45,764 nucleotides of DNA from the IMG/VR virus record IMGVR_UViG_3300006052_000013. One strand, written 5' to 3'. The notes below the pieces were generated by a model that worked only from the letters and a program-made list of their open reading frames with translations, ran no database searches and was not told the DNA's origin. This DNA comes from a virus. The position numbers and the translations under genes were made by a program. Shown piece after piece: positions 27,011 to 39,595 of this stretch; position 1 is the stretch's first letter; each line of letters starts with the position of its first letter.

Positions 27011-27097
27011 TTTGCTGTATGACACGGGAACAACCCCGTGTCTGTTCGGAGAGGAACAACAGCAAAATCATAGTACACCGATTACGGTCTGGTGTAC
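27011..27097 (-). ncRNA. candidate structured small RNA or 3' trailer with an anti-SD loop
   Basis: No ORF with an SD. Hairpin GUACACC..GGUGUAC, then a 3-way junction UUGCUGU/ACAGCAA enclosing UGUUC-CUCUCC-GAACA and GACACGGG..CCCGUGUC. Bounded by JH copy 1 and the terminator. Confidence 0.3.
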
Positions 27098-27126
27098 ATT
27101 ACCACGGGTTTACCCGTGGCCCTCTG
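27098..27126 (-). repeat. junction hairpin (JH) motif copy 1
   Basis: RNA sense CAGAGGGCCACGGGUAAACCCGUGGUAAU; abuts the UAA of 27127..27636. Confidence 0.8.
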
Positions 27127-27636
27127 TTATTCTCCGGTTTGTTCAAAGTGCCGGATACGTTCTTTGGTAATATTGACATACTCGGTAGTCCCCGGGGTGG
27201 CATCCCGAAGTCTTCTTTCAAAAGTTTCTGGCCAGTGACCTCGGCCGTAGTTGCGATAACCCCTTAAAAGAAACAAGCGTGCCGCGGCACTCTTATCTAT
27301 GCCAAGCCATTCCGCGGCGCGGTCGGGGGTATCCGTGTGAAAGATAAAATAAGATACGTCTGTTTCTTCATCTTTAATCGGTTTAACCTGTCCCGTCATT
27401 ACCAGAATATTTCCCGCCAGGCATCCCACCGTATTACAGGGGGGAACATCATCGGCCGTCGGCGAAAATTCTGATAATATTTGAGACACTCTTTTTTTCA
27501 AAACATCGCCTTCTTTGGCCGTTACTCCCCACAAACCCATGTTGAACCGAAGTGGTTCTTTCTCGATGTACTCAATTAACTGCTCGAGTTTCGCCACGGT
27601 TTCCGGGGATGGCTTTTCGTATTGTTGGTTTTCCAA
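27127..27636 (-). CDS. hypothetical protein
   Basis: TTG start after AAGGAGAGGAA; JH copy 2 lies upstream. Confidence 0.55.
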   Translation of the reverse strand: MENQQYEKPSPETVAKLEQLIEYIEKEPLRFNMGLWGVTAKEGDVLKKRVSQILSEFSPTADDVPPCNTVGCLAGNILVMTGQVKPIKDEETDVSYFIFHTDTPDRAAEWLGIDKSAAARLFLLRGYRNYGRGHWPETFERRLRDATPGTTEYVNITKERIRHFEQTGE

Positions 27637-27665
27637 ATTCCTCTCCTTGATAACGGAAGATATCC

Positions 27666-27694
27666 GTTACACCGGGTTTCCCCGGTGCCCTCTG
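27666..27694 (-). repeat. JH motif copy 2
   Basis: CAGAGGGCACCGGGGAAACCCGGUGUAAC; 2 nt after the UAA of 27697..28209. Confidence 0.75.
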
Positions 27695-27696
27695 GT

Positions 27697-28209
27697 TTAT
27701 GCCGCCTTCTTTTTGTTGGCATTCCGGACTTTGACGCGACGTTGCATCTCGGCCGAACGTTCTTCCGGAGACATTTTGTCCCAGTAACTTTTCGCCCCGA
27801 TGGCAACTTTTGATTTTCTTTTGGTTTTCGCCCATCGCAATCGCTGGGCCTGGGCAATCCGGTTCCGTGCCGACTTGGACAGACGACGTTTCAATGGTTT
27901 GTCATCATGTGAACGAACATGAATCGTCGTCGTGCCAGGGGCGATTTCATTCCCTTGGTCGGTTGCTCCCCGCATCTGGGGCAAATGTTGGGTACCGTCC
28001 AATAACTCCCCGCGCGTCTCGGCGAGAAGAAGCGTTCCCACCCAATGGGCAGCGTCGGGCGGAGTGATCGCTCCGCCTGTCTCTGCTCCGAGGGCGTTAA
28101 GCTGCGCTTTGATATCCCGGTAAAGGTAACCGAGCCGGAATGCCGCAGTTTGGAAAATGGAATGACTTTCCTTAGTGCTCCCATACTGTTTTCCTCTCCT
28201 TGGTTTCAT
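27697..28209 (-). CDS. hypothetical basic protein
   Basis: ATG after GAGGAUAAAAAC; C-terminus RLRWAKTKRKSK...NANKKKAA. Confidence 0.55.
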   Translation of the reverse strand: MKPRRGKQYGSTKESHSIFQTAAFRLGYLYRDIKAQLNALGAETGGAITPPDAAHWVGTLLLAETRGELLDGTQHLPQMRGATDQGNEIAPGTTTIHVRSHDDKPLKRRLSKSARNRIAQAQRLRWAKTKRKSKVAIGAKSYWDKMSPEERSAEMQRRVKVRNANKKKAA

Positions 28210-28238
28210 GTTTTTATCCTCATAACGGACAGTAGTCC

Positions 28239-28268
28239 GTTACCGTGGGTTTACCCCACGGCCCTCTG
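28239..28268 (-). repeat. JH motif copy 3
   Basis: CAGAGGGCCGUGGGGUAAACCCACGGUAAC; abuts a UAA. Confidence 0.8.
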
Positions 28269-28676
28269 TTACGCGAGTTCATTCATTGCACTAGCTTGTT
28301 CAAAATCCGACAACGTTCCCTCGAATGTTGCTCCGCAACTGCACGAAACTTTGTAGTCTAGAGAAAAACCATAGAACATTTTCGTTCCTCTTCCCTTGCC
28401 CTCGCTTTTTGTGGCCGGTTCTAAATCTGAACCATTACCATTGACGGAGAGGTCGTGTTCATCGCCCTCGTGGTCTTCGGGTACATACCCAGGAATATCC
28501 TGAGTTGCGCTGATATTTGCATCTTTCAATTCTTCGCCGCATTCGCCGCATTTCAATATTACTCGAACATCGGCCCGGACCTCGGCCGCGATGAGGTCCA
28601 CTTCCAAATCACCTTCTAACTCAACTTCATGGGGGTCTTCATAGGGAACAAACTTATTGCAACTTGGACAACGCAT
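28269..28676 (-). CDS. Zn-ribbon protein
   Basis: Start reset to the ATG after AGGAGAGGAAA (the track ORF reads through the UTR as MLPYQERK). CPSC...CGEC. Confidence 0.55.
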   Translation of the reverse strand: MRCPSCNKFVPYEDPHEVELEGDLEVDLIAAEVRADVRVILKCGECGEELKDANISATQDIPGYVPEDHEGDEHDLSVNGNGSDLEPATKSEGKGRGTKMFYGFSLDYKVSCSCGATFEGTLSDFEQASAMNELA

Positions 28677-28741
28677 TTTCCTCTCCTGATATGGCAACAA
28701 ATAAGCCGTTGGCTTATTTGTTGAGGTTTCCCCTCATTGCC
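28677..28741 (-). promoter_or_regulatory. Y-shaped 5'-UTR element copy A
   Basis: AUGGCAA-U-GAGGGGAAACCUC-A-ACAAAUAAGCCAACGGCUUAUUUGU-UGCCAU-AUC-AGGAGAGG. Confidence 0.6.
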
Positions 28742-28768
28742 ATTACCGGCCCGTGGGCCGGCCCTCTG
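28742..28768 (-). repeat. JH motif copy 4
   Basis: CAGAGGGCCGGCCCACGGGCCGGUAAU; abuts a UAA. Confidence 0.8.
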
Positions 28769-28987
28769 TTACTGAATACCCCGCGCCGGTGGTACGTGGT
28801 GTGCGTCCGGACGCAATACCCCCGGCGGAACTTCCATATCGGGCGGCGGCGCACATCGGTTCTGAGATAGAAGCGCCTGTTGCATAATCTCCCAGGCCTT
28901 TTCCTGTCGCCGGGCCAAAGAGAATACATACCATAGGTACAATACTCCCAGTAAAATTAACGCCAAACTTGCCAAACCTTCATTCAT
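28769..28987 (-). CDS. small single-pass membrane protein
   Basis: Start reset to MNEGLASLALILLGVLYLWYVF after GGUAAGGAGGGAACAACA. Confidence 0.5.
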   Translation of the reverse strand: MNEGLASLALILLGVLYLWYVFSLARRQEKAWEIMQQALLSQNRCAPPPDMEVPPGVLRPDAHHVPPARGIQ

Positions 28988-28999
28988 TGTTGTTCCCTC

Positions 29000-29029
29000 C
29001 TTACCACGGGTATTACCCCGCGGCCCTCG
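29000..29029 (-). repeat. JH motif copy 5
   Basis: CGAGGGCCGCGGGGUAAUACCCGUGGUAAG; has a G-U pair; the sigma ORF stop UAA lies in the loop. Confidence 0.8.
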
Positions 29030-30362
29030 GTTGTTCTTCGGTGACCGGCGCCATCCAGTGCAGTTTTCCATCCGATTCCAGGATTAATTCTTTATCTTGG
29101 CATCGACGGATGATCGAATAGGCCTGACCATTTGTGGTACCCGCGGTCATCATCTTCTGAACTAATTCGTTCTTAGGAAGAGGCCCATCGGCGAGTATCT
29201 GTTTTAAGACCGGTTCCCAATATCCTCGTGGTGAACGAGTCTGCGGGGCATTTCCATTGACCTCATCATGGGCCGTCGCATTAATCGACTTCTTTCCCGT
29301 GATAATATCGTGGGCACTTGTCAGTTGTTCAATCACCGCGGTCCACTTACGGGCCTCGGCCTCGGATTCCGCGGCCTGCCGGGTATAAAACTGTACCTTG
29401 CGATGGGCATCAGATATCAAAGACTCGATGGTCGGTGGTGATCCACTTGGTATTTGTTCCATTGTTTTCTCTCCTTGTTGTTTTAGTTGAAAGAGATAGT
29501 TTTGATGAACAATCTCTTCCTGGGTATACTGCCGAACCGGCCCCGGTGCTGTGACCGTCCGGGGGGGACGGAGATTCACGGGGGTTTTTGCCAGAAGTCC
29601 GTGCGACGTAAATATTTGATTCGGGGCACGAGGGTCGCGTCCGCTCAGATGGTAATAACTACCCAGTTCCGTTTCATTGAATCTGGACGCCCCCGCATTC
29701 CGTGAACTTCGTATTTGCGTCGGTGGTGGACTCCCGATGTGTTCCCGGGCGGCCGCGGCGACCAGTTTTTCGCGCCGCAACCTTCGTTTTTTCTTGCTCA
29801 TTGATTTGCTCATTGATTTGCTCTCCCACAACACTCGAAGATCACTCAAACCGTGTGATTGATAGGCCTTTACGGCCCCGACGGACAAATTTAAAATTCC
29901 GGCGGTTTCTTCCAAAGTTTTTTCTTCCAGAAATCTAAGAAACAACACGCGGCGCCGGCTCCTATTCAAATACGGTAACAAGCGCAAAAAATGCTCACGT
30001 GTGATCCAGGAATCTATGGTTTTATCCGGAGTATCCGGCAAATCCAGGGTGTTTCCATCTTCATTGATGGGATTATCCAAGGATACTTCTGAAAGATTGT
30101 TCTTTCTTCGTAGGTACATCAAAAATTCCCGGTGCGCAATTTGATGCAACCAGGAACTTAATTTGGCCTCACCTCGAAAATCGCCGATGGCCAGAAAGGC
30201 CTTCGTAAAGGTCACCTGGGCCAGTTCTTCCACGGCGTCTTCATTCAGTTGCCAATATTTGCGCAAAGTTTTTTTTACCCGCGATAACTGGTCACGATAT
30301 ATTTGGGAGAACGCGTCTTGATCGCCGGATTTTGCACGATCTAATAATTCTTTTTCTTCCAC
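29013..30362 (-). CDS. ECF-like sigma-70 family factor with a ~270-aa C-terminal extension
   Basis: Region 2: DAFSQIYRD...SWLHQIAHREFLMYLRRK. Region 4: RRRVLFLRFLEEKTLEETAGILNLSVGAVKAYQSHGL. GTG start after AAAGGAGAACGUAA. Confidence 0.8.
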   Translation of the reverse strand: MEEKELLDRAKSGDQDAFSQIYRDQLSRVKKTLRKYWQLNEDAVEELAQVTFTKAFLAIGDFRGEAKLSSWLHQIAHREFLMYLRRKNNLSEVSLDNPINEDGNTLDLPDTPDKTIDSWITREHFLRLLPYLNRSRRRVLFLRFLEEKTLEETAGILNLSVGAVKAYQSHGLSDLRVLWESKSMSKSMSKKKRRLRREKLVAAAAREHIGSPPPTQIRSSRNAGASRFNETELGSYYHLSGRDPRAPNQIFTSHGLLAKTPVNLRPPRTVTAPGPVRQYTQEEIVHQNYLFQLKQQGEKTMEQIPSGSPPTIESLISDAHRKVQFYTRQAAESEAEARKWTAVIEQLTSAHDIITGKKSINATAHDEVNGNAPQTRSPRGYWEPVLKQILADGPLPKNELVQKMMTAGTTNGQAYSIIRRCQDKELILESDGKLHWMAPVTEEQPRAAG

Positions 30363-30384
30363 TTACGTTCTCCTTTGATATTTA

Positions 30385-30415
30385 CTTACCGGGGAAATAT
30401 ATCCCCCGGCCCTCG
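30385..30415 (-). repeat. JH motif copy 6
   Basis: CGAGGGCCGGGGGAUAUAUUUCCCCGGUAAG. Confidence 0.8.
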
Positions 30416-30430
30416 TTTTTACCACTACTT

Positions 30431-30601
30431 TTACACTTTCAAAACGGGATTTTCGTCCATCACCGCACGCTCGGCCAGAAACCCCGCCGCGGTGGCGGTG
30501 ATTTCTATCTCGCGGTGCCGATCCCGCACGGTGATTGTGCGGCCATTTAATAATTCTCGCAATTCTTTTTCTCCGAGTTCTACTTTAATTGGCTCTTTCA
30601 T
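30431..30601 (-). CDS. small hypothetical protein (56 aa)
   Basis: Start reset to MKEPIKV after AGGAGAGGAAC. Confidence 0.5.
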   Translation of the reverse strand: MKEPIKVELGEKELRELLNGRTITVRDRHREIEITATAAGFLAERAVMDENPVLKV

Positions 30602-30665
30602 GTTCCTCTCCTGGTATGGCAAACATTGCGGCGAAGCCGCATGTTTGAGGTTTCCCCTCATTGCC
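30602..30665 (-). promoter_or_regulatory. Y-shaped 5'-UTR element copy B
   Basis: AUGGCAA-U-GAGGGGAAACCUC-A-AACAUGCGGCUUCGCCGCAAUGUU-UGCCAU-ACC-AGGAGAGGAAC-AUG. Confidence 0.6.
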
Positions 30666-30694
30666 ATTACCGTGGATTTACCCACGGCCCTCTG
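30666..30694 (-). repeat. JH motif copy 7
   Basis: CAGAGGGCCGUGGGUAAAUCCACGGUAAU. Confidence 0.8.
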
Positions 30695-30714
30695 AGTTAC
30701 TAGGAATGGGCTTA

Positions 30715-30906
30715 TTAGGCAAACTGATAATCACTTTTTTTTGCTCGAAAGCCCTTTTTCTTGAGAAGACTGGCATCCCACCCCGTGATATCCTTCACGT
30801 CCTTTACGGCATACTCCCAGGCCTCGCTGGCAGATGTTCCGGGGCGATGATACAAAACTACCCCTTCTCGATCTACCAACATCCAAACCCGATCTAATTC
30901 TGGCAT
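30715..30906 (-). CDS. small hypothetical protein (63 aa)
   Basis: Start reset to MPELDRVW after AGGAGGGAAAGC. Confidence 0.5.
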   Translation of the reverse strand: MPELDRVWMLVDREGVVLYHRPGTSASEAWEYAVKDVKDITGWDASLLKKKGFRAKKSDYQFA

Positions 30907-30922
30907 GCTTTCCCTCCTGTTC

Positions 30923-30953
30923 ATTAACGCGGCAGGTTCGCCGCGTCCCTCTG
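30923..30953 (-). repeat. JH motif copy 8 (variant)
   Basis: CAGAGGGACGCGGCGAACCUGCCGCGUUAAU; abuts a UAA. Confidence 0.7.
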
Positions 30954-32057
30954 TTATTGTTTGACCAAATAACTTGTATCAACATCTACGTCTTCCCCGT
31001 TTCTCGACAACCGAGTTTGGTGCGAAATCAAGGAAAGATTTTCTTGAAAACTTGCAAGTTTGGGAACCGCCGTCCGTCCGATCATTGCAATGTAACCCCG
31101 ACCCCGCCAGGGTGGCATGTGATTTCTGGACAAACGTTCGACGATGGTTCGATAGTACAACATGCGATTGGTAAAGGACTCCGGGGCACCGGGTACGGGC
31201 GGCGTAAAGCTGATCTGAATATAATCAGTCCAACTTTTATCTGCGCCCGAGGCCCGCAGTTTGTACCGGGCCAGGGCGCCCGCGAAGTACCGCGCCAACT
31301 TGACATTGGCCGCGAACTCCGTAATGCCCGGTTCCCAGGCCCGATACCGTCGACGGTAATACTCCCGTTGCTCCGTGGGAATTTCCCCAGACCAACCCAA
31401 GTCCTGCAATTTTGCCCAAGACTTGGATTTATTCCGGTCATAACCCGGTTGGTCACTATCCACCAGATACTCGTACATGGCATCTTGTATCTGGTCGGCC
31501 AGGGCAAAGTAGGCCTCATAGGTAGTCAGATGTTTTTCCCGGACCGGATTCACAAAATGAAGATTTAGAATCCGAACCAAGGCCGACAAACCCTGTGAGT
31601 ACTCTTCCACCATTTCTGCTCCGACTGGGCCATCTTCTTGGTAGAGATACTCCGCGTTGATATCTTCAACACGAAGATTAAACTGGATAGATGGTGTGAA
31701 GACTTCCCGAACCTGCCGGTAAAGGCAGGCGAGTTGTTTCAGTGCCATGACCTCGGCCACATCCAGAATGGCCCCCGTCTTGGCCTTTCGGCCGCCCCAG
31801 GGAACCAGCACCGGAATTGCCTTACCCAGTTCGAGACTCTGCCGGATGACCGCCCGAATTGTCACCAGTGCCTCGGGTTTCGGGATCGGACCATAACGAT
31901 TCTGGTTCGTTCCCAAGAGAATACCGGTGATAATCTCGAGCAATGATTGTTTTGGAGGAGCCGCGGCGACGGGAAACTCCCGCCACAGAAACTCATCAAT
32001 CAAAGACGAGTAGGGATCGTCCACGGGTGATGTAACTTGGTACGTTGCTGTACTCAT
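30954..32057 (-). CDS. hypothetical protein (367 aa)
   Basis: Start reset to MSTATYQ after AGGAGAGGAAC; no family assigned with confidence. Confidence 0.6.
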   Translation of the reverse strand: MSTATYQVTSPVDDPYSSLIDEFLWREFPVAAAPPKQSLLEIITGILLGTNQNRYGPIPKPEALVTIRAVIRQSLELGKAIPVLVPWGGRKAKTGAILDVAEVMALKQLACLYRQVREVFTPSIQFNLRVEDINAEYLYQEDGPVGAEMVEEYSQGLSALVRILNLHFVNPVREKHLTTYEAYFALADQIQDAMYEYLVDSDQPGYDRNKSKSWAKLQDLGWSGEIPTEQREYYRRRYRAWEPGITEFAANVKLARYFAGALARYKLRASGADKSWTDYIQISFTPPVPGAPESFTNRMLYYRTIVERLSRNHMPPWRGRGYIAMIGRTAVPKLASFQENLSLISHQTRLSRNGEDVDVDTSYLVKQ

Positions 32058-32127
32058 GTTCCTCTCCTGGTATGGCAAACCAAGAGACGAAGTCTCTTGG
32101 TTCTGAGGTTTCCCCTCATTAACCATA
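32058..32127 (-). promoter_or_regulatory. Y-shaped 5'-UTR element copy C
   Basis: GUAUGGUUA-AUGAGGGGAAACCUCA-GAACCAAGAGACUUCGUCUCUUGGUU-UGCCAUAC-C-AGGAGAGGAAC-AUG. Confidence 0.6.
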
Positions 32128-32153
32128 CTTACCGTGGTTTCCCACGGCCCTCG
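32128..32153 (-). repeat. JH motif copy 9
   Basis: CGAGGGCCGUGGGAAACCACGGUAAG. Confidence 0.8.
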
Positions 32154-32156
32154 TCA

Positions 32157-32220
32157 TATCTCTAAATCTTGGAATGGCATTACATGAATATCTCTAAATC
32201 TTGGAATGGCATTACATGAA
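32157..32220. repeat. 32-bp tandem duplication (2 copies) at a gene 3' end / JH junction
   Basis: tatctctaaatcttggaatggcattacatgaa occurs twice and shifts the stop codon of 32180..32419. Confidence 0.85.
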
Positions 32221-32419
32221 TACCTCCCTGGAAGTGACCCATGAACACGATGGAATGATGAAACGGGTACTTAACCTTTAACAAATTTCTGTACCGTTCA
32301 ATTTTTGTTCCGATGGTCATTCCACTTTCAGAGGCGTCGTCCGGTCCTACTTCGACGATTGCCAGATTGTTCATGTAATCTTCATTGGAATGGTGGTTGA
32401 TAACGTAGATTAGTTTCAT
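32180..32419 (-). CDS. small hypothetical protein (79 aa)
   Basis: Start reset to MKLIYVINHH after AGGAGAGGAAC; C-terminus altered by the 32-bp duplication. Confidence 0.5.
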   Translation of the reverse strand: MKLIYVINHHSNEDYMNNLAIVEVGPDDASESGMTIGTKIERYRNLLKVKYPFHHSIVFMGHFQGGIHVMPFQDLEIFM

Positions 32420-32486
32420 GTTCCTCTCCTGGTACAGCAACAAGAGACGGTTTAAGTTTCTTGTTTGGGATTTTTTCCCGGCTGTA
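32420..32486 (-). promoter_or_regulatory. Y-shaped 5'-UTR element copy D
   Basis: GUACAGC-C-GGGAAAAAAUCCC-A-AACAAGAAACUUAAACCGUCUCUUGUU-GCUGUAC-C-AGGAGAGGAAC-AUG. Confidence 0.6.
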
Positions 32487-32514
32487 CTTACCGCGGGTTT
32501 CCCCGCGGCCCTCG
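32487..32514 (-). repeat. JH motif copy 10
   Basis: CGAGGGCCGCGGGGAAACCCGCGGUAAG. Confidence 0.8.
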
Positions 32515-32550
32515 TATCACTGCGAGAATCGCAGAGATATGTTTTTATTT

Positions 32551-32709
32551 TTACTGCGCCGCCACGGCGCTCGCCGCACTTGAAAAAACGTTATTGGAAT
32601 TGCTTCCAATCAGGCGAACCGTACCGACGACGATTACCAGAATTACCGCCAGCATCACGGCGTATTCTGCGATATCTTGCCCTTCTTCGGACTTCCACAG
32701 TGTTTTCAT
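32551..32709 (-). CDS. Flp/Fap-family (type IVb, Tad) pilin-like peptide
   Basis: MKTLWKSEEGQDIAEYAVMLAVILVIVVGTVRLIGSN...; G-x4-EY processing-type motif plus a hydrophobic helix. Start reset after AAAGGAGAAAACA. Confidence 0.6.
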   Translation of the reverse strand: MKTLWKSEEGQDIAEYAVMLAVILVIVVGTVRLIGSNSNNVFSSAASAVAAQ

Positions 32710-32720
32710 TGTTTTCTCCT

Positions 32721-32828
32721 TTAGTGAACTTGCCGATACAACAACCACAACAAAAAAAACCACGCGGTTGCGGAGATATCAAACCAGGTAAACCCCATGA
32801 AGACGGGGTGCAAGTTAAATGGCCACAT
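32721..32828 (-). CDS. small hydrophobic peptide (35 aa)
   Basis: MWPFNLHPVFMGFTWFDISATAWFFLLWLLYRQVH; ATG after GAAAGGAGGACGCGCGAU; below the track cutoff. Confidence 0.35.
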   Translation of the reverse strand: MWPFNLHPVFMGFTWFDISATAWFFLLWLLYRQVH

Positions 32829-32865
32829 ATCGCGCGTCCTCCTTTCAAGTCAATGGGGAGATTGA

Positions 32866-32891
32866 CTTACCGTGGTTTCCCACGGCCCTCG
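32866..32891 (-). repeat. JH motif copy 11
   Basis: CGAGGGCCGUGGGAAACCACGGUAAG; abuts a UAA. Confidence 0.8.
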
Positions 32892-33014
32892 TTAACGAAC
32901 CACGCTATAAACCAGATTAACATTGTCGCCGATTAGGTGGCGACTGCCGATGATAATGATTACGACGACCGCCAGTACTACTACGTACTCTCCGAGTTGT
33001 TTAAGTTTGTTCAT
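32892..33014 (-). CDS. Flp-pilin-like small peptide (40 aa)
   Basis: MNKLKQLGEYVVVLAVVVIIIIGSRHLIGDNVNLVYSVVR; ATG after CCGGAGGAAACA; below the track cutoff. Confidence 0.4.
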   Translation of the reverse strand: MNKLKQLGEYVVVLAVVVIIIIGSRHLIGDNVNLVYSVVR

Positions 33015-33028
33015 TGTTTCCTCCGGTA

Positions 33029-33056
33029 CTTACCGGCCCAGATGGGCCGGCCCTCG
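33029..33056 (-). repeat. JH motif copy 12
   Basis: CGAGGGCCGGCCCAUCUGGGCCGGUAAG; abuts a UGA. Confidence 0.8.
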
Positions 33057-33272
33057 TCACGCAGTAATAGGTTCCAGGGTAACCTTGAAACCCTTGAGGT
33101 CCCCGAGTTCAGAGATACCCAGTTCTTTCATCGCCTCCAGACGGTTGACGTAGATGTTGGTGAGTACGCCGGACTGATCCTTGGGAAGGCTGTATTTGAC
33201 TGCTCCCTTCTTGGGATCAACCACGCGCAGCTCTACGGTTACCGTCTTGGCCTTTGGTTTTTCGGGTGCCAT
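33057..33272 (-). CDS. small hypothetical protein (71 aa)
   Basis: Start reset to MAPEKPKAK after GUGGAGAGGAAAAAU. Confidence 0.5.
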   Translation of the reverse strand: MAPEKPKAKTVTVELRVVDPKKGAVKYSLPKDQSGVLTNIYVNRLEAMKELGISELGDLKGFKVTLEPITA

Positions 33273-33326
33273 ATTTTTCCTCTCCACTTTTAAGGTCACC
33301 GCCGGATTCGTGCCCCCGGCTTGTGC

Positions 33327-33354
33327 CTTACCGTGGGTTTCCCCACGGCCCTCG
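33327..33354 (-). repeat. JH motif copy 13
   Basis: CGAGGGCCGUGGGGAAACCCACGGUAAG. Confidence 0.8.
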
Positions 33355-33391
33355 TATCACTGCGATAATCGCAGAGATATGTTTTGAGTTT

Positions 33392-33604
33392 CTATTCACC
33401 ACCGTTGAAAGCACCGTCGGCGAGTAAATCGCAGGCGATGTCCATCGACTTGACGACGACCGCGGTCAGTGTTAATGCCTCGTGTCGCAAAAGAAAAGCG
33501 GCCACGATCAAAATCACTAACACGATCAGTTTAAACCACATACTGTGGTAAACCCGCCAAAATCTATTCTTGGCCCGGAGACGGCTTTGTCGTCTTCGGT
33601 TCAT
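33392..33604 (-). CDS. small membrane protein (70 aa)
   Basis: MNRRRQSRL...WFKLIVLVILIVAAFLL; the ATG lies 4 nt after the upstream stop (coupled). Confidence 0.4.
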   Translation of the reverse strand: MNRRRQSRLRAKNRFWRVYHSMWFKLIVLVILIVAAFLLRHEALTLTAVVVKSMDIACDLLADGAFNGGE

Positions 33605-33608
33605 TGAT

Positions 33609-33749
33609 TTATACTCGTGCGCCGCCGGCGATGGCAACTGATGCCACCCCACCCAGAAACGCAAGTTCAATCAGCAACCGATACACGTCATGAGAAACAT
33701 ACCACATGATCGCGTCTTGCAGACGTTTGACCACTTTGTCTCGGGACAT
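33609..33749 (-). CDS. small membrane peptide (46 aa)
   Basis: MSRDKVVKRLQDAIMWYVSHDVYRLLIELAFLGGVASVAIAGGARV; ATG after UAGGAGAGGAACAAU; below the track cutoff. Confidence 0.4.
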   Translation of the reverse strand: MSRDKVVKRLQDAIMWYVSHDVYRLLIELAFLGGVASVAIAGGARV

Positions 33750-33803
33750 ATTGTTCCTCTCCTAATAAGGCTCACTCCGGTTTTCGTGCCCCCGGATGGT
33801 GGC

Positions 33804-33833
33804 CTTACGGGTCACCGGAGTGACCCGCCTTCG
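33804..33833 (-). repeat. JH motif copy 14 (variant, GAAGGC flank)
   Basis: CGAAGGCGGGUCACUCCGGUGACCCGUAAG. Confidence 0.65.
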
Positions 33834-33843
33834 GGGAAACAAC

Positions 33844-34059
33844 TTAGGCGGCCTGGTTCAAATCGTACCGGGCCAAATCATGCTGGTTTGCATGGTGAAC
33901 CTTTTCGGCCCACTTTACGGCGACGGCCGAGGTTAGATAGTTGGTTTCTTCGACCGATCCGTCTGAGTGTTCCAGAATAATACGATCGGCGGCCTCGATG
34001 GCCTTGTTGATTGCTTCTTGACGACGCATATCGCGATTGTTGATACTATCCGTGATCAT
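33844..34059 (-). CDS. small hypothetical protein (71 aa)
   Basis: ATG after UAAGGAGAGGAAA. Confidence 0.5.
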   Translation of the reverse strand: MITDSINNRDMRRQEAINKAIEAADRIILEHSDGSVEETNYLTSAVAVKWAEKVHHANQHDLARYDLNQAA

Positions 34060-34093
34060 TTTCCTCTCCTTACAAGGCTCACTCTATTGTGGC

Positions 34094-34122
34094 CTTACCG
34101 TGGGTTTTCCCCACGGCCCTCG
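34094..34122 (-). repeat. JH motif copy 15
   Basis: CGAGGGCCGUGGGGAAAACCCACGGUAAG; abuts a UAA. Confidence 0.8.
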
Positions 34123-34380
34123 TTATATTTGTAGTGGTTTATTTTCGTTGAGACTGCGAGTAACCGCCGCCCAGGAAAATTCCAGACGCATTTCCCGTAC
34201 CTGGGGCACGTCCAGATTCATATGGGAGTAAACGGAAACTACGCAATAATCTAACATTCGACCAGAAGTAACGGCAGTAAGAATGACCCGTGGGCCAACC
34301 TGGAGTTTGACCATGGGTAATTCTTTTTTGACCTTTTCCTCGGTCCATTCCGGATTGGGTGTCGATTTTGCTTTTTTCAT
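34123..34380 (-). CDS. small hypothetical protein (85 aa)
   Basis: ATGA overlap with the upstream gene. Confidence 0.5.
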   Translation of the reverse strand: MKKAKSTPNPEWTEEKVKKELPMVKLQVGPRVILTAVTSGRMLDYCVVSVYSHMNLDVPQVREMRLEFSWAAVTRSLNENKPLQI

Positions 34381-34601
34381 ACCTTTACCATTCCTCCCCA
34401 AGACCGTTGATAAAATACCCGGAACCCGGCGGTTTGAACATCGATCACCGCGCGACGCCTCGCGGTCTCACCCGGAAAGATGAGGTACTTAAACGGCCCC
34501 GCCTCGGTGGTACCGTACGTAATCGTCGGATGAATCACCCGTCGTATTTCGTCGAATTCGCTCTTTTTGACGGCGAACTCAGGCTGATTTGGTCTTGGCA
34601 T
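34377..34601 (-). CDS. small hypothetical protein (74 aa)
   Basis: Start reset to MPRPNQ after AGGAGGCCCGGU. Confidence 0.5.
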   Translation of the reverse strand: MPRPNQPEFAVKKSEFDEIRRVIHPTITYGTTEAGPFKYLIFPGETARRRAVIDVQTAGFRVFYQRSWGGMVKV

Positions 34602-34797
34602 ACCGGGCCTCCTGAATGGTCCCATTTTCGATGACCTTTTTGATCAGACTAGTTTCAAATCCACTTAACTGGAAGCCAAATGGATTGGGCGCCGAACCCT
34701 TTTGTCCGGTCAGTAACCATGTACGATATGCCCTCGCATACCGCCGTTGATTACAAGGTAATCGATGAATGTAATCATCAATAATTTTGTTTTGCAT
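34579..34797 (-). CDS. small hypothetical protein (72 aa)
   Basis: Start reset to MQNKIIDDY after AGGAGAGGAAU. Confidence 0.5.
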   Translation of the reverse strand: MQNKIIDDYIHRLPCNQRRYARAYRTWLLTGQKGSAPNPFGFQLSGFETSLIKKVIENGTIQEARYAKTKSA

Positions 34798-34864
34798 ATT
34801 CCTCTCCTGGTATGGCAGTGTCGACGGCGGAGGCCGTCGCACTCTGAGGTTTCCCTCTGCCACA
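34798..34864 (-). promoter_or_regulatory. Y-shaped 5'-UTR element copy E
   Basis: GUGUGGCAG-A-GAGGGAAACCUC-A-GAGUGCGACGGCCUCCGCCGUCGACACU-GCCAUAC-C-AGGAGAGGAAU-AUG. Confidence 0.55.
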
Positions 34865-34894
34865 CTTACCGTGGAAGTTATCCCACGGCCCTCG
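34865..34894 (-). repeat. JH motif copy 16
   Basis: CGAGGGCCGUGGGAUAACUUCCACGGUAAG. Confidence 0.8.
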
Positions 34895-34895
34895 T

Positions 34896-35123
34896 TCAAA
34901 TACGTTCTACCAGAAAAGGTTCGCCCAAAAACTGGCCATCCTCGAAGGGCGCCACGTTAAATTCAGAACCACACTTAGAACATTTTATGTTTTGACTTAA
35001 CCCACCCCGTCGTCCTTGAAAAAATGTGTCGTTATTACAGTCTGGACAAACGTGACGGTTGGCAATGGCATCAAAAACTGGATCAACAACGGGTGCTTTT
35101 TTCTTACGAAATGGGTTCCACAT
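34896..35123 (-). CDS. Zn-ribbon protein
   Basis: CPDC...CSKC; ATG after AAAGGAGAACGACAAAG. Confidence 0.55.
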   Translation of the reverse strand: MWNPFRKKKAPVVDPVFDAIANRHVCPDCNNDTFFQGRRGGLSQNIKCSKCGSEFNVAPFEDGQFLGEPFLVERI

Positions 35124-35143
35124 CTTTGTCGTTCTCCTTTGTA

Positions 35144-35172
35144 CTTACCACGGGTTACCCCCGTGGCCCTCG
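35144..35172 (-). repeat. JH motif copy 17
   Basis: CGAGGGCCACGGGGGUAACCCGUGGUAAG; abuts a UAA. Confidence 0.8.
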
Positions 35173-35298
35173 TTAGTGACGCGTTATAAACCATTGAACC
35201 ATCAAGATGACCCCGGTAATCGAAAACCCAACGATTACCGCCCCAATCATCGTGGCGATCCAACCATGTTGAGGCTCCTCTTCGTCATTGTTTTTCAT
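35173..35298 (-). CDS. small membrane peptide (41 aa)
   Basis: MKNNDEEEPQHGWIATMIGAVIVGFSITGVILMVQWFITRH; the start overlaps the upstream gene end. Confidence 0.35.
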   Translation of the reverse strand: MKNNDEEEPQHGWIATMIGAVIVGFSITGVILMVQWFITRH

Positions 35299-35467
35299 CT
35301 CTGGTCGCCTTATGATAGGCGCGAACCCGAACAGAATGAACAAAATTTGACATCGGTTCTTTTTTAGAATCTGTTTGGCGAAAGCAAAATTCATTAGACC
35401 CGGCCCGGCAACGAGGGCAGGGGATTAAAATAATGCGATCCCGACTGGCGGGTTTTACTCTTGGCAT
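35285..35467 (-). CDS. small Zn-binding protein (60 aa)
   Basis: Start reset to MPRVKPAS after AAAGGAGAAAACA; CPRC motif. Confidence 0.5.
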   Translation of the reverse strand: MPRVKPASRDRIILIPCPRCRAGSNEFCFRQTDSKKEPMSNFVHSVRVRAYHKATRDEKQ

Positions 35468-35483
35468 TGTTTTCTCCTTTGTA

Positions 35484-35513
35484 CTTACCGGCCCATGACT
35501 GGGCCGGCCCTCG
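35484..35513 (-). repeat. JH motif copy 18
   Basis: CGAGGGCCGGCCCAGUCAUGGGCCGGUAAG. Confidence 0.8.
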
Positions 35514-35533
35514 TTTACCACATTATGAATTAT

Positions 35534-35824
35534 TCATGCCGCCCGCTTTGGCATGACTTTTAAGACTCCCCGCCGTTTGGCAAGATCGAACAGTTGGTAG
35601 TGAATTGCCTGTTCGACGGGCATCGTCGTCGCCAATTTACCCTGGCGTTTAACCTCGGCGATGACCTCGCCACTCGTGGCCTTTTTGAGTTTCTTAATGG
35701 CCAATACGGTGGCGCCGGCGTGGGTATGGGGTTTTAATTTGGTGATATCCACCTTCGGTTTTGCAACCAGCGCGTAAAACTGTCGTCCCGTTGCAGACTG
35801 CACGGGCTTCTTTTGACTTTTCAT
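35534..35824 (-). CDS. DNA-binding-like protein, paralogue of the globular part of 25754..26164
   Basis: Shared pattern R.(L/F)Y.LVA..K.D......H.GA.V.A..KL...T...VI.EV..QGK..T.M; start reset after AUAGGAGAGAUUCAA. Confidence 0.55.
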   Translation of the reverse strand: MKSQKKPVQSATGRQFYALVAKPKVDITKLKPHTHAGATVLAIKKLKKATSGEVIAEVKRQGKLATTMPVEQAIHYQLFDLAKRRGVLKVMPKRAA

Positions 35825-35884
35825 TTGAATCTCTCCTATCACGAACAAATTTGCTTCCAACGCACGGCCTGGAGGGACGAGTGC

Positions 35885-35911
35885 GTTACCACGGTTTCCC
35901 GTGGCCCTCTG
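35885..35911 (-). repeat. JH motif copy 19
   Basis: CAGAGGGCCACGGGAAACCGUGGUAAC; abuts a UAA. Confidence 0.8.
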
Positions 35912-36178
35912 TTATTGAACAGTAATCGGAATAAACCCCGCCGATCGTAGGCAGGACGCACAACTGACCGAGAAGTGATATATTTGTCTTTTTGGGTCGG
36001 TTTCTTCAGGACAACTCTTGCAACTGATTACGCCCATGGAAGTTTCGGTGGCCGGCTCAAAAAACTCCACGTCGCCGGGGTTACCGACATGTTCACATAC
36101 CAAATAACCTGCTTCCCGAACCTCCGGATATTTTTCACATCCGACGATCGGGTATACATCAATATTATCTACTGTCAT
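35912..36178 (-). CDS. Cys-rich hypothetical protein
   Basis: ATG after UAAAGGAGAAACA. Confidence 0.55.
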   Translation of the reverse strand: MTVDNIDVYPIVGCEKYPEVREAGYLVCEHVGNPGDVEFFEPATETSMGVISCKSCPEETDPKRQIYHFSVSCASCLRSAGFIPITVQ

Positions 36179-36197
36179 TGTTTCTCCTTTATTTGGT

Positions 36198-36228
36198 CGT
36201 AACGCCGGGGATCACCCGGCGCCCTCTG
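36198..36228 (-). repeat. JH motif copy 20 (variant)
   Basis: CAGAGGGCGCCGGGUGAUCCCCGGCGUUACG; the upstream ORF stop UGA lies in the loop. Confidence 0.7.
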
Positions 36229-36388
36229 AATATTCTTCCTCTGTCATCTCTTCATCAAGATCAATAAACTCGACGGTGTATTTCATCCCTTTAGAATATT
36301 TCTCTGGAATTAAAGACTCCGCCAAAAGAACCGCCTGGGTGCGGTTTTCTGCCTCCAGTACAGTTTCGTACTTGACCCGCCATCTCAT
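36212..36388 (-). CDS. small acidic protein (58 aa)
   Basis: MRWRVKYETVLEAENR...EEYSEGAG; ATGA overlap with the KTSC gene; below the track cutoff. Confidence 0.4.
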   Translation of the reverse strand: MRWRVKYETVLEAENRTQAVLLAESLIPEKYSKGMKYTVEFIDLDEEMTEEEYSEGAG

Positions 36389-36627
36389 GCCACCCTCCGG
36401 CCGTTTTCCACCAATTCATACTTGTAACGATATCGAACGAACTGGTAGAAAAAACGACCCTTGGAATGTGCCCGTTGAAAGCGGCCGAAGGTCAGGGGAC
36501 CTACGCCAAAGTAACGATACATGCGGCCGGTCAGGAATCTTACGTACAGAATCCGCCGCAGCACGTCATATCCGATACTTTGGATATTGGTCGAATCTAC
36601 CTCGATCATTCCCACTTGTGTTGTCAT
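36385..36627 (-). CDS. KTSC-domain protein
   Basis: VDSTNIQSIGYD...LYVRFLTGRMYRYFGVGPLTFGRFQRAHSKGRFFYQFVR. Confidence 0.65.
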   Translation of the reverse strand: MTTQVGMIEVDSTNIQSIGYDVLRRILYVRFLTGRMYRYFGVGPLTFGRFQRAHSKGRFFYQFVRYRYKYELVENGRRVA

Positions 36628-36636
36628 ATTTCCCTC

Positions 36637-36665
36637 CTTAAACCCCCTCAGAGGGGGTTCCCTCG
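36637..36665 (-). repeat. JH motif copy 21 (variant)
   Basis: CGAGGGAACCCCCUCUGAGGGGGUUUAAG; the upstream ORF stop UGA lies in the loop. Confidence 0.65.
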
Positions 36666-36884
36666 CCTTTCCATCTTGATCATTCCGTACATAATCATCG
36701 CCAGTCCCATGGCCACGACTTCCTCCGGCCGGGGGTAACTTTCAACATGTTTCACCATGGCCGTGGTGAGCGGTATATTCGGCGACACACCCTTTTTAGC
36801 CAGGCGTGTGCGCAGTTCATTTAGGGAGATGACTCCTAGTTCTTCCAATCTTTTCTTGGTTTTTTCTACATTTTGTCGGTTCAT
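36648..36884 (-). CDS. small hypothetical protein (78 aa)
   Basis: Start reset to MNRQNVEK after ACAAGGAGAGAAUUUCAA. Confidence 0.5.
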   Translation of the reverse strand: MNRQNVEKTKKRLEELGVISLNELRTRLAKKGVSPNIPLTTAMVKHVESYPRPEEVVAMGLAMIMYGMIKMERRGNPL

Positions 36885-36903
36885 TTGAAATTCTCTCCTT
36901 GTA

Positions 36904-36931
36904 CTTACCACGGATTTCTCCGTGGCCCTCG
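36904..36931 (-). repeat. JH motif copy 22
   Basis: CGAGGGCCACGGAGAAAUCCGUGGUAAG. Confidence 0.8.
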
Positions 36932-36953
36932 TTATCAGGGACACTACATCTTG

Positions 36954-37364
36954 TTAAATGGGTTCGATTTTATTGACCTCATCCCATTTCAGGCCCAAAA
37001 CGTGAAAGGCCATCCGGGCGTGATAACCAAAATGGTTATCCCCCGTGGTGACTATCCGTTTGCGGAGTTCCAGCTTATCTGCCGTATCGGAGGTACTAGA
37101 TAAACAACTGGCCTGATTACCGTTCTCCCATAGGCCAAGACGGCCTCGGATTACCTCGGTCGTCGCCCATTTGGCATCATGGTCGCTGATGCCATTTTGC
37201 GAGTTCTGTTCATCCGGACCGCGCAACGCCGAAAGAACCCACCATAGGGCCTTCCCCTGTGATATTTTGTAGAGATTGTCGCCACCCCGGTCTAGTACAT
37301 CCGTCGGTGACGAATTTTTGTTGATTTCTTTGGCAATCTCCCGCAGCAATTCAATCCATTTCAT
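36954..37364 (-). CDS. hypothetical protein (136 aa)
   Basis: ATG after UAGGAGAGGAAUUAAC. Confidence 0.55.
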   Translation of the reverse strand: MKWIELLREIAKEINKNSSPTDVLDRGGDNLYKISQGKALWWVLSALRGPDEQNSQNGISDHDAKWATTEVIRGRLGLWENGNQASCLSSTSDTADKLELRKRIVTTGDNHFGYHARMAFHVLGLKWDEVNKIEPI

Positions 37365-37398
37365 GTTAATTCCTCTCCTATTTAAAGATTTGATTGGT

Positions 37399-37428
37399 CT
37401 TACGGGTCACCGAAGTGACCCACCCTCG
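37399..37428 (-). repeat. JH motif copy 23
   Basis: CGAGGGUGGGUCACUUCGGUGACCCGUAAG; UUCG loop; abuts a UAA. Confidence 0.8.
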
Positions 37429-38991
37429 TTAGTCGTTCTGTTTTTCTTTGTACTCCATAGACCGCACGATGACCCCGAACAACAGGTCGCCCAGGCGGTG
37501 CAACATACCCGGAATCACGATCGCGTTGGGGTTGTGGGAGGTTCCCAGAAGGGCGCCAAACCCAAAGTAACCTTTGTGCAACCGGAGTTCCGGGTCGGCC
37601 AGTCCGGGAGACTTTTGAATTTCTCCGTCGTAGTCGTATTGCATTTCATTGTGCCGGAAACTGCAACCGAAGTTCACCAGATCGTCGGGGCGATTCTCAT
37701 AACCGGTCAGGTTATAAAACTCATCCACTTTGGTTTCGGTCTGGGAACGACCCCGCCGGATCACAAAGTCTTTTATGATCCGGTCCCACCCGGTGACATC
37801 TGACACGATGCGCCCCGTCCGCAGTGCCCGGTAGTAATCGGCCCGGTTCTGGGGAAGATCGCCCTCGTAATCTACCAGGTTCGAGGCAGAAAGATCACGA
37901 AATACCCGGTACTTCGTGTTTTTTTGGATGATGTAATCATCCGGATTAAATACGGAGTCCTTGGGATAGTGGGTCAATACCGAATAATCGGTATCAATTC
38001 CTCGATCCTGGGCATCGTGAAGTTGCCGGAGCATCTCGGCGGTAGAGTTTCCCAGGCCAATAAAGAGAAATTTCTTTCCCTTAATTTGCGGGTAAGTGAG
38101 GCGCTTTTGCCAACGGTTACCGGCGTGGGTGACCTCCGCAGATGTCACCATACGGTGGCGATCCGAGAGGTTTTTCGGTTTTCCCAGTCCCAGGCAGTTG
38201 ATGACGATGGGGTACTCCTTAAAACTTTGACCACGGTCATAAACCCCGTGGGCAAGATTGTTCGGAGTAACCGTGGTGACGTCGTTGGTGATAACGTTTA
38301 ATGAATTGGCGTTCTGGATATTTTGCAGAAAATCCCGTACCTCCGATCCTTCGCCGGGCGCCGGTTCCAGGGCATACTCGCCCAGGACCAATCTACGAGG
38401 ATTGTTTCGACTCCCGCCTTTGATATCTTCCCGTGACCAGATTCCAAATGGTTTGCCCTTTTCATAAAGAGTTACATTTTTAAATCCGGTGCGACTCAGG
38501 CCATATCGTACAATTTGGCCCGCCGCCCCACCACCGATGATGGCAATGGGTGTGTTCCCAATGTCCAAATTGATCACGTTATAAAACGTGGACAAACGTC
38601 CGGCGATACCACTCCCAAAAAAATTATTGGAAGTATTTACCGGAGAGACGGCCAAGGCGCGATCAATTACTTGATTTTGCTCGGGCGTTCCCCGGTAAGT
38701 AACACAGTCGGCGGGTTTCGAGAACAACGAAACTTCACCCAAATAATCCAACACCGGAAATTTTTGGTATATTTCATCTCCGGAAACATTACGCAAGACG
38801 TAACTTCCCAGAAACTTTCCCAGCATTTTCCGACGGCCCATTTCAACAATGGCCTGGTTACTCCAACCTTTATCGCGCGTCATACGTTTTAACACGGATA
38901 TCGGATTGGATAACATTATTGGACTAACGACGTTGTACGACTTCATCGCTTCAACTGCCAAGAACGACTTCAACATTTCTTGGTGATTCAT
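37429..38991 (-). CDS. two-dinucleotide-binding-domain flavoprotein (FAD/NAD(P)-dependent oxidoreductase or monooxygenase-like)
   Basis: IAIIGGGAAGQIVRYGL (GxGxxG) and FLFIGLGNSTAEMLRQL (a second Rossmann motif); start reset to MNHQEML after ACAGGAGAAGAACAA. Confidence 0.7.
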   Translation of the reverse strand: MNHQEMLKSFLAVEAMKSYNVVSPIMLSNPISVLKRMTRDKGWSNQAIVEMGRRKMLGKFLGSYVLRNVSGDEIYQKFPVLDYLGEVSLFSKPADCVTYRGTPEQNQVIDRALAVSPVNTSNNFFGSGIAGRLSTFYNVINLDIGNTPIAIIGGGAAGQIVRYGLSRTGFKNVTLYEKGKPFGIWSREDIKGGSRNNPRRLVLGEYALEPAPGEGSEVRDFLQNIQNANSLNVITNDVTTVTPNNLAHGVYDRGQSFKEYPIVINCLGLGKPKNLSDRHRMVTSAEVTHAGNRWQKRLTYPQIKGKKFLFIGLGNSTAEMLRQLHDAQDRGIDTDYSVLTHYPKDSVFNPDDYIIQKNTKYRVFRDLSASNLVDYEGDLPQNRADYYRALRTGRIVSDVTGWDRIIKDFVIRRGRSQTETKVDEFYNLTGYENRPDDLVNFGCSFRHNEMQYDYDGEIQKSPGLADPELRLHKGYFGFGALLGTSHNPNAIVIPGMLHRLGDLLFGVIVRSMEYKEKQND

Positions 38992-39025
38992 TTGTTCTTC
39001 TCCTGTATAAGCCCGATTCATCGGA

Positions 39026-39055
39026 CTTACACCCCCGTTTCCGGGGATGCCCTCG
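39026..39055 (-). repeat. JH motif copy 24
   Basis: CGAGGGCAUCCCCGGAAACGGGGGUGUAAG; has a U-G pair. Confidence 0.75.
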
Positions 39056-39060
39056 TATCA

Positions 39061-39303
39061 CTAAGGAACAAACTGGTACCAAAGAAGTGTCCCCGGTGGA
39101 TAGGGAACCTCCTCGTGTTTTTGTTTCGTGAACCAGATGGCAACCCGTTCCAGATCGGCGTCTGATGCGAGTGCCTCGGTATACTTGGTCTCACCGTCCG
39201 ATTGCAGATTTTCCTTTACAAAGTTATACTGCCGGATATCTGCGAGGGAGGCCTCGACCAGGGCGGTTTCTTTGTCGCCTTTGATAATCAATCGTATTGA
39301 CAT
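39061..39303 (-). CDS. small hypothetical protein (80 aa)
   Basis: ATG after CGAGAGGAUAAC, 1 nt after the upstream stop. Confidence 0.5.
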   Translation of the reverse strand: MSIRLIIKGDKETALVEASLADIRQYNFVKENLQSDGETKYTEALASDADLERVAIWFTKQKHEEVPYPPGTLLWYQFVP

Positions 39304-39304
39304 G

Positions 39305-39565: not shown

Positions 39566-39593
39566 ATTACCGGACTTATCGTCCGACCCTCTG
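39566..39593 (-). repeat. JH motif copy 25
   Basis: CAGAGGGUCGGACGAUAAGUCCGGUAAU. Confidence 0.75.
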
Positions 39594-39595
39594 TG

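Follow-up and report, generated by a model that had tools for sequence, protein, structure and literature searches.

What does a phage gain from a sigma factor with a long C-terminal extension, and what is that extension? The question is raised by a gene in IMG/VR virus record IMGVR_UViG_3300006052_000013, a stretch of 45,764 nt that was analysed as a whole and is called the window here. It comes from a phage that has not been cultivated and whose genome measures roughly 100 kb; all genes of the window lie on the minus strand, and phage replication genes are present. The gene encodes a protein of 449 amino acids (aa), of which residues 1 to ~180 are, by profile comparison, an intact sigma factor of the extracytoplasmic function (ECF) type, with sigma2 and sigma4 and without sigma3. 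The rest is a full-length member of a phage protein family that has not been described and whose other members are mostly separate proteins. The gene and its sigma regions are as follows.

29013–30362, minus strand: complete open reading frame (ORF) of 449 aa, sigma core plus winged-helix module (ORF call, profile searches).
30099–30299, minus strand: sigma region 2, aa 22–88 (Pfam PF04542 Sigma70_r2, E 9.2e-11, 41.8 bits, cut-off 24).
29835–29990, minus strand: sigma region 4, aa 125–176 (Pfam PF08281 and PF04545, both above cut-off).

The ORF begins with GTG, preceded by AAGGAG 7 nt upstream, and a protein identical to its product (P0001) is found on three public contigs. Region 4 was recognised by two models, Sigma70_r4_2 (PF08281) at aa 125–172 (E 2.5e-8, 33.8 bits, cut-off 25.7) and Sigma70_r4 (PF04545) at aa 132–176 (31.3 bits, cut-off 24.1), and the linker between sigma2 and sigma4 spans 36 aa (89–124). 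Sigma region 1 or 3 gave no Pfam match at E<=1 anywhere in the 449-aa protein. The NCBIfam model for ECF sigma factors, TIGR02937, scores 76 bits against a cut-off of 42.9. A preliminary description of this DNA had read regions 2 and 4 of ECF style in the first ~180 aa and had stated that a failure to match sigma-70 region 2 and 4 profiles would refute this; the Pfam and TIGR02937 scores, all above cut-off, bear it out. None of the NCBIfam equivalog or subfamily models reaches its cut-off (best SigY, 83 bits against 194), so the core belongs to no named subfamily. PHROG 1740, 'RNA polymerase sigma factor', matches the protein at E 3.6e-18. By sequence, the closest solved structures to aa 3–176 are RpoE (1or7, E 2.8e-11) and SigW (5wuq, E 9.8e-11), each aligned over both domains. 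A tblastn search of 50,697 phage records gave matches confined to the sigma core, from aa 1 to ~175, at 25–37% identity.

The extension comprises ~265 aa after residue 185; it had rightly been described as long, at an estimated ~250 residues that proved somewhat low. An exhaustive HMMER search with aa 186–449 against 1.84 billion representative proteins (E<=1e-3) returned 42 matches: ~38 standalone proteins, one further sigma fusion (P0002) and three long proteins matched in multiple stretches. One of these long proteins, P0016, is a low-complexity repeat protein and was rejected as a family member; P0003 and P0013 were classed alike by assumption. The standalone members, 139–359 aa long, align across the entire extension, and two of them, P0005 (MSKSKQKKFSK...) and P0025 (MSNKRRKKRRL...), start where the fusion has M188-SKKKRRLRREK. 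The extension is therefore an entire independent protein in its own right, fused to the sigma factor at a short SKSM repeat. The module part of no member has a Pfam or PHROG match, and sequence searches for a solved relative of the family gave nothing significant. When the whole protein or the family alignment served as query in word-based homology searches, little but the protein itself came back, and an IMG/VR search for related loci with the single protein found none.

P0002 (440 aa, locus L003) is the sole other protein with the same fusion of sigma factor and module. It is collinear with the window protein through both halves (447 columns, 31% identity, E 2e-54), and because this collinearity extends over the whole length at only 31% identity, we regard the fusion as old and selected. 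Both fusion genes end inside a hairpin of the kind that punctuates the surrounding operon, in each case of the variant with CC...GG flanks. At L003, the fusion gene is the last before a conserved block and terminator, and the first gene after the terminator is apparently homologous in the two phages (first codons, compared by eye).

The fold of the module was predicted with AlphaFold2 from an alignment of 25 family sequences (mean predicted local distance difference test, pLDDT, 74). Four elements stand out.

29736–29801, minus strand: Arg/Lys-rich helix, aa 188–209 (AlphaFold2, module residues 3–24; aligns to the N-termini of P0005 and P0025).
29484–29522, minus strand: short conserved helix with the motif Y[ST]xExIAHxNYL, aa 281–293 (alignment and AlphaFold2).
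29298–29429, minus strand: 44-residue helix, aa 312–355 (AlphaFold2, pLDDT 90–94).
29055–29219, minus strand: winged-helix domain, aa 382–436 (AlphaFold2, pLDDT ~95–97, H-beta-H-H-beta-beta).

The first helix lies in a region of net charge +8 (aa 186–212) and is followed in the model by a disordered basic linker of ~70 aa. Family members have, on average, a strongly basic N-terminal segment (+7), and the mean charge of their winged helix is +2. The 44-residue helix holds the family-invariant residues A134, K137 and W155 (module numbering). The C-terminal segment, aa 382–436, is confidently predicted to be a winged helix, in agreement with the winged-helix-like end that had been suggested from the sequence. 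All Foldseek matches in PDB and BFVD are winged-helix proteins (DtxR, MarR/ZitR, YodB, PadR, Z-alpha and small phage winged-helix proteins), over ~55–62 residues at ~2 A and with probabilities of 0.9–1.0, but with E >= 0.025, none of them significant. In the module we found no transmembrane segment (maximum hydropathy 0.77), no HxxxCxxC motif and no helical bundle; since the whole protein has a single cysteine and the predicted topology is not that of a bundle, the extension is not a classical anti-sigma domain. Nor does it resemble the SnoaL-like, tetratricopeptide repeat (TPR), Cys-rich, DUF1835 or multi-transmembrane extensions (no Pfam match, one cysteine, no transmembrane segment). That the extension is a 'regulatory domain', as the preliminary description has it, finds no support in these features: it is a copy of a standalone family and lacks anti-sigma features.

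The joint between the two halves carries two features of its own.

29794–29823, minus strand: 12-bp tandem repeat, 2.5 copies, AGCAAATCAATG in gene sense, encoding SKSMSKSMSK (copies 100% identical).
29821–29827, minus strand: Shine-Dalgarno-like GGGAGAG, 7 nt before the in-frame ATG of codon 184 (29811–29813), a candidate internal start (sequence inspection).

The repeat, with its period of 12, had been placed at ~29796–29823 in the preliminary description, together with the basic stretch (KKKRRLRREK) that directly follows it, and both are present. It is the site of the fusion joint and doubles the in-frame ATG (codons 184 and 188). The homologous fusion P0002 lacks it, so the repeat is best explained as a recent slippage event in the window phage. 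The L003 fusion gene has GGAG 6 nt before its own in-frame joint ATG, and in the two fusion genes the Shine-Dalgarno-like site encodes different residues (W-E-S and I-G-A). Because both genes keep GGAG before the joint ATG, it is possible that the C-terminal module is also translated on its own from there. Another internal start, at Met301 with the ribosome-binding-site-like AAGGAGAG, was rejected: the site encodes the conserved family motif KGEKxM, and that conservation accounts for the nucleotide match.

The sigma gene is the fifth from the end of an operon that we take as early, with ~45 small genes over ~18 kb, from a promoter at ~45300 to an intrinsic terminator at 27009–26986.

45272–45300, minus strand: TTTTCA-17-TATAAT, the best sigma70-like promoter, heading the hairpin-punctuated operon (consensus match only).
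26986–27067, minus strand: end of the early operon, with conserved block, structured RNA and intrinsic terminator (27009–26986; fold z = -7.6).

Lying early and just upstream of the terminator between the early and the next module, the gene is therefore placed like classical phage sigma genes. We recognised no anti-sigma gene beside it; the 72-aa membrane protein encoded downstream has no Pfam match, nor do other neighbours. On the 99.5-kb parent contig, a convergent arm on the opposite strand, presumed to be the late arm, lies just left of the window and encodes a phage lysozyme and proteins of 598, 356 and 1190 aa. To the right, ~6 kb of further small minus-strand genes are arranged in short units with sigma70-like promoters and strong terminators, and the divergence point lies beyond them.

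The conserved block at the operon end (27043–27065) is identical in the window and L003 over 23 nt by exact search, and the alignment gives 25 identical bases, TTTTGCTGTTGTTCCTCTCCGAACA. It sits inside strongly structured RNA and is identical even though the two sigma factors share only 31% of their residues. The block (region 1368–1460 of L003) also contains CCUCUCC, the complement of the GGAGAGG ribosome-binding sites of the phage.

The hairpins at the gene junctions of this operon flank the sigma gene on both sides.

29001–29028, minus strand: junction hairpin motif GAGGG-P1-UAA, overlapping the last five sigma codons (motif search; CC...GG flanks).
30386–30414, minus strand: junction hairpin directly upstream of the sigma gene, with its UAA 23 nt before the GTG (motif search).

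The last codons of the sigma gene read CCG AGG GCC GCG GGG TAA; this stop falls within the loop of the first of these hairpins, where the preliminary description had located it (PRAAG-UAA). Only four genes, this one included, run into a hairpin before stopping; most motifs begin 4–9 nt after the preceding stop codon. A loose pattern (GAGGG, a hairpin, then TAA) has 34 copies on the minus strand (27096–43702 of the window) and none on the plus strand; a stricter one has 29 minus-strand copies, compared with a mean of 0.3 and a maximum of 2 in 200 shuffles. Compensatory changes maintain the P1 stems (the 34 copies have 33 distinct ones), the loops are often GAAA (9 of 34) or UUCG, and the flanks covary as a helix of 2 bp (P2): AC/GU in 20 copies, CA/UG in five, and CC/GG at the sigma gene in both phages. 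From AGGG to TAAG the flanks are 16–21 nt apart, a little wider than the 15–19 nt first reported.

A permissive Rfam scan matched one family, the type-P5 twister (RF02684), in seven places on the same strand at 23–30 bits, all below the gathering score of 37.6 (best 30.0 bits). The junction motif aligns to the P2(5')-GAGGG-P1 hairpin-UAA-P2(3') part of this model. As judged from alignment and covariation, the junction hairpins are RNA elements of the operon transcript related to the twister ribozyme. One copy (44139–44009) also has the P4 hairpin CCAGUCCCAAGCCUGG; the other ~33 lack the P4 hairpin and its pseudoknot half, which twisters require for catalysis. If cleavage took place at U^A of the junctions, the hairpin would form the end of the upstream mRNA and AAGUACAAAGGAGA the start of the downstream one.

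Several further observations concern these RNAs. The copy with P4 lies just upstream of the first array gene (44009–44139, minus strand) and is a candidate complete twister (30 bits, E 6e-4 in a 1.5-kb search), with large insertions and the exact GUCCCAAGCC loop of the T1/T2 pseudoknots at 44012–44021. A near-copy of GUCCCAAGCC occurs at 44597–44606, and the P4 loop is not found at the other junctions. In the leader (44593–44610, minus strand) there is an orphan P4-like hairpin, UCAGG-UCCCAAGU-CCUGA, whose loop ends in GU, complementary to the AC after GGUAAGU in roughly one junction out of three; on these sequences, a split twister that acts in trans is conceivable. The leader belongs to a stretch of ~1.2 kb (~44043–45270, minus strand) without a convincing ORF, between the promoter and the first array gene, in which Rfam gave twister-like matches only; this stretch could be a non-coding RNA or else a long leader with structure. 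Five or six 'compound' junctions have ~100 nt in common, consisting of a CA/UG-type motif, GGUAAUGGCAAUGAGGGGAAACCUCAA, a variable hairpin and UUGCCAUACCAGGAGAGGAACAUG; UGGCAA and UUGCCA can pair across their two inner hairpins, and they may form a larger structured RNA. Their positions are as follows.

28673–28768: compound junction.
30598–30696: compound junction.
32054–32152: compound junction.
34794–34893: compound junction.
39498–39591: compound junction.

Searching IMG/VR with the probe ACGAGGGCC-N10-22-GGTAAGTACA gave five loci, which were rejected as chance matches with no hairpin and no encoded homolog.

On balance, we lean towards an early-made, two-part transcription protein in which the sigma factor retargets core RNA polymerase and the module is a built-in co-activator or tether, perhaps also made alone. 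The host holoenzyme would transcribe the early operon; the sigma part would then bind host core RNA polymerase and redirect it to middle or late phage promoters, of which those just past the terminator and those of the lysis and structural arm on the opposite strand are candidates. The fused module would provide a second contact, to nucleic acid or to a partner protein, and act as a co-activator or tether rather than as an anti-sigma factor. The Shine-Dalgarno-like site and ATG at the joint may in addition give the free module. The analysis establishes the identities of the domains, the fold, the conserved fusion, the layout of the operon and the RNA nature of the hairpins; RNA polymerase redirection, the role of the module and internal initiation, like any RNA cleavage, are steps that we infer.

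A number of points weigh against this picture. No promoter class for the sigma factor was found, either in the window or in a further ~16 kb of flanking sequence that takes in little of the late arm; the dedicated class expected by the preliminary description is plausible, but none was seen there: ECF-type bipartite patterns (GGAAC/GAAC-N15-18-CGT/CGTC) show no excess, enrichment of 10-mers after the terminator gave no coherent set, and the 165-nt region after the terminator has no clear motif in common with L003. The basic character of the winged helix is slight (family mean +2; 0 here) and its recognition helix varies among members, and it could therefore be protein-binding. The full-length AlphaFold2 model, a single-sequence prediction, is too poor (pLDDT 47) to inform on interdomain contacts, and the idea of an internal start is based on two sequences. 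Finally, no sigma gene lies beside the standalone members in the five contexts examined (L004, L005, L006, L012 and L013), which have no junction hairpin either; the family therefore has a function independent of sigma factors. A 181-aa gene overlapping the standalone homolog in L005 was considered as a split-off sigma factor and rejected (no Pfam match, BLASTP E 4.2).

The strongest rival, which we still consider unlikely, is that the extension is an autoinhibitory or signal-responsive domain that folds back on sigma2, sigma4 or the linker, as in ECF groups 41 and 42. According to PMC7826278, C-terminal extensions are the second commonest mode of ECF regulation and usually come without an anti-sigma gene. 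The lack of a recognisable anti-sigma gene next to the window gene fits this, and the long disordered linker would let the module fold back. However, the module is a complete independent family found in sigma-free contexts, which points to an autonomous function. It belongs to none of the SnoaL-like, TPR and Cys-rich types, and no contact between the domains could be predicted from the poor full-length model.

A more speculative elaboration, improbable as a whole, has one gene with two products. Owing to the Shine-Dalgarno-like site and ATG at the joint, both the fusion and the free module would be made and would contact each other by way of the invariant long helix. The free winged-helix protein would time or tune a sigma-driven switch from early to middle transcription, so that sigma factor and partner would form a self-contained pair of a new type; the Arg-rich helix might read the twister-like RNAs and the conserved element near the terminator.

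We give little credence to the idea that the ORF is functionally two genes, encoding a free winged-helix protein and a sigma factor with an incidental tail left by the loss of an ancestral stop. It draws on the GGGAGAG 7 nt before the ATG of codon 184 and the analogous GGAG in L003, on standalone members that start exactly at the joint and on the duplication of the ATG by the 12-bp repeat. An incidental fusion should decay, however, whereas this one is kept in frame at 31% identity with no stop in either gene, and in the contexts seen the standalone members are not beside sigma genes.

There is a slim chance that the module binds RNA, its Arg-rich helix, alone or along with the winged helix, recognising either the junction hairpins or the conserved 25-nt element on the nascent early transcript. 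RNA polymerase would thereby be linked to antitermination or processing, much as the arginine-rich motif of lambda N binds boxB. The +8 Arg/Lys helix at the start of the module, the GAAA loops of the hairpins and the intrinsic terminator between the sigma gene and the next module would suit such a role, as would the co-occurrence of sigma fusion, junction motif and conserved 25-mer in the window phage and L003 only. The loops and stems, however, are so variable that loop-specific recognition is unlikely, standalone members with the same basic N-terminus occur in contigs without the motif, and the module has no sequence or fold similarity to N proteins; the idea is pure inference.

That the protein is a decoy or hijacker of host core RNA polymerase, or of a host anti-sigma factor, and serves to shut off host transcription appears very improbable. 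Its gene does lie in the early operon, and host RNA polymerase is a common target of phages at the start of infection. DNA-recognition regions would be superfluous in a decoy, however, and here region 2 and the helix-turn-helix of region 4 are intact and score above cut-off.

Finally, the proposal that the junction flanks GAGGG ... GGTAAG are -35 and -10 elements of this sigma factor, giving each small gene its own promoter, has a bipartite, strand-specific motif upstream of gene starts and a flank spacing within reach of promoter spacers in its favour and almost no chance of being right, because the 'spacer' is a covarying hairpin with RNA-stabilising tetraloops and a 2-bp flank helix that aligns to the twister-P5 model in seven places, the sigma gene and ~30 genes upstream of it in this operon all have the motif in front of them, a start 7 nt after GGTAAG would fall at or inside the Shine-Dalgarno sequence, and the flanks are unlike the -35 AAC and -10 CGT of ECF promoters. 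The preliminary description had judged this unlikely from the variable spacing; the covarying RNA hairpins exclude it more firmly.

The rest of the genome offers several observations that stand apart from the sigma gene. Directly upstream of the early promoter is a perfect 14-bp palindrome, GTCTAAATTTAGAC (45329–45342), which may be an operator; it was considered as an operator for the winged helix, but 61.6 kb of sequence contain it only a single time. Upstream of the array, the immediate-early units seen in L016 at ~1745, ~2795 and ~4205 (window-equivalent ~49.2–51.7 kb) have an A/T-rich promoter block, AAAAATAATTTTAAATTTGaCTA, in common, and a strong intrinsic terminator closes every one of them. 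A minus-strand cluster downstream of the sigma gene (20914–24987) encodes a DNA methylase (23815–24987), a T4 Rnl1-type RNA ligase (22670–23818), an Acb2/Tad1-like sponge (22283–22669) and a metallophosphoesterase (20914–21519); were ribozyme cleavage to occur, its 2',3'-cyclic phosphate and 5'-OH ends would be possible substrates for the ligase and phosphoesterase. An 851-aa phage protein (18149–20704, minus strand) has a vault repeat and the shoulder domain of Major Vault Protein (E 1.5e-26) but no PHROG match. A dense set of nucleotide-metabolism genes (1284–1892, 5143–7462 and 13213–13920, minus strand; L014) includes ThyA-like and ThyX proteins, dCMP deaminase, a dTMP kinase fused to a uracil-DNA glycosylase (UDG)-like domain and a phosphoribosyl-ATP pyrophosphohydrolase (PRA-PH, MazG-like) protein, and hints at a modified base in the phage DNA.

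Three repeats were also recorded. The 14-nt tandem repeat GGGCAACCGCGCCG at the right edge (45719–45764) has at least 3.3 copies; contig ERZ28007521 k141_4332039 has 2, and samples thus differ in copy number. A terminator is closely followed by an (ATCAGT)x7 repeat (25639–25681), and a 32-nt tandem repeat with 2.2 copies at 97% identity (32156–32226) adjoins a junction hairpin. ARAGORN found no tRNA in the window or the loci, and tRNA-like T-arm fragments were accordingly rejected.

Phage sigma factors that drive middle and late transcription are well known, as in Bacillus phage SPO1 (gp28, gp33/34) and PHROG 1740 and 351. With these, the window protein shares a sigma70-family sigma factor in the early region that is expected to retarget host core RNA polymerase; none of the phage sigma factors described carries the fused module. 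Escherichia coli RpoE and Bacillus subtilis SigW have both sigma domains in common with aa 3–176. They are proteins of ~190 aa under separate membrane anti-sigma factors, whereas the protein here is a 449-aa fusion. In phage T4, the DNA-binding activator MotA works with sigma region 4, together with AsiA, to open a new promoter class. The likeness to MotA/AsiA is a functional analogy only, in which the two activities would share one polypeptide; there is no sequence homology, and a model of the MotA activation domain is an insignificant structural match (rank 15, E 0.24).

About 13% of reference phage genomes encode a sigma factor (PMC9429907). Nineteen ECF groups have C-terminal extensions; among the types named in PMC7826278 are SnoaL-like (ECF41/56/294/295), TPR (ECF42), Cys-rich (ECF238/287/288), DUF1835 (ECF264) and multi-transmembrane (ECF263). 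That source states explicitly that phage ECF sigma factors are not captured by the classification, and neither 'winged' nor 'DNA-binding' was found in its text; our literature search found no fusion of a sigma factor and a winged helix. Bacterial ECF sigma factors with C-terminal extensions and the window protein have in common the sigma2–sigma4 core, a fused part of more than 50 aa and no recognisable anti-sigma gene next to them. The window protein differs in being phage-encoded, in an extension (basic helix, long helix, winged helix) of no described type and in that this extension also lives as standalone phage proteins.

With the type-P5 twister (RF02684), the junctions share P2-GAGGG-P1-UAA, whereas most lack P4 and its pseudoknot half and the scores are sub-threshold. 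If the 34 junctions are cleaved, they would be a direct case of ribozyme-type processing of phage polycistronic mRNA, described as only suggested in a review (PMC6765202), and the twister-like array is a more surprising feature than the sigma fusion. The fusion links an undescribed family of ~40 clusters to transcription, offers a simple test of whether a sigma factor can carry its own activator or tether, and may be a compact part for synthetic orthogonal transcription. Phage sigma factors and ECF C-terminal extensions are both already known; a sigma factor fused to an otherwise independent winged-helix phage protein differs from them in kind.

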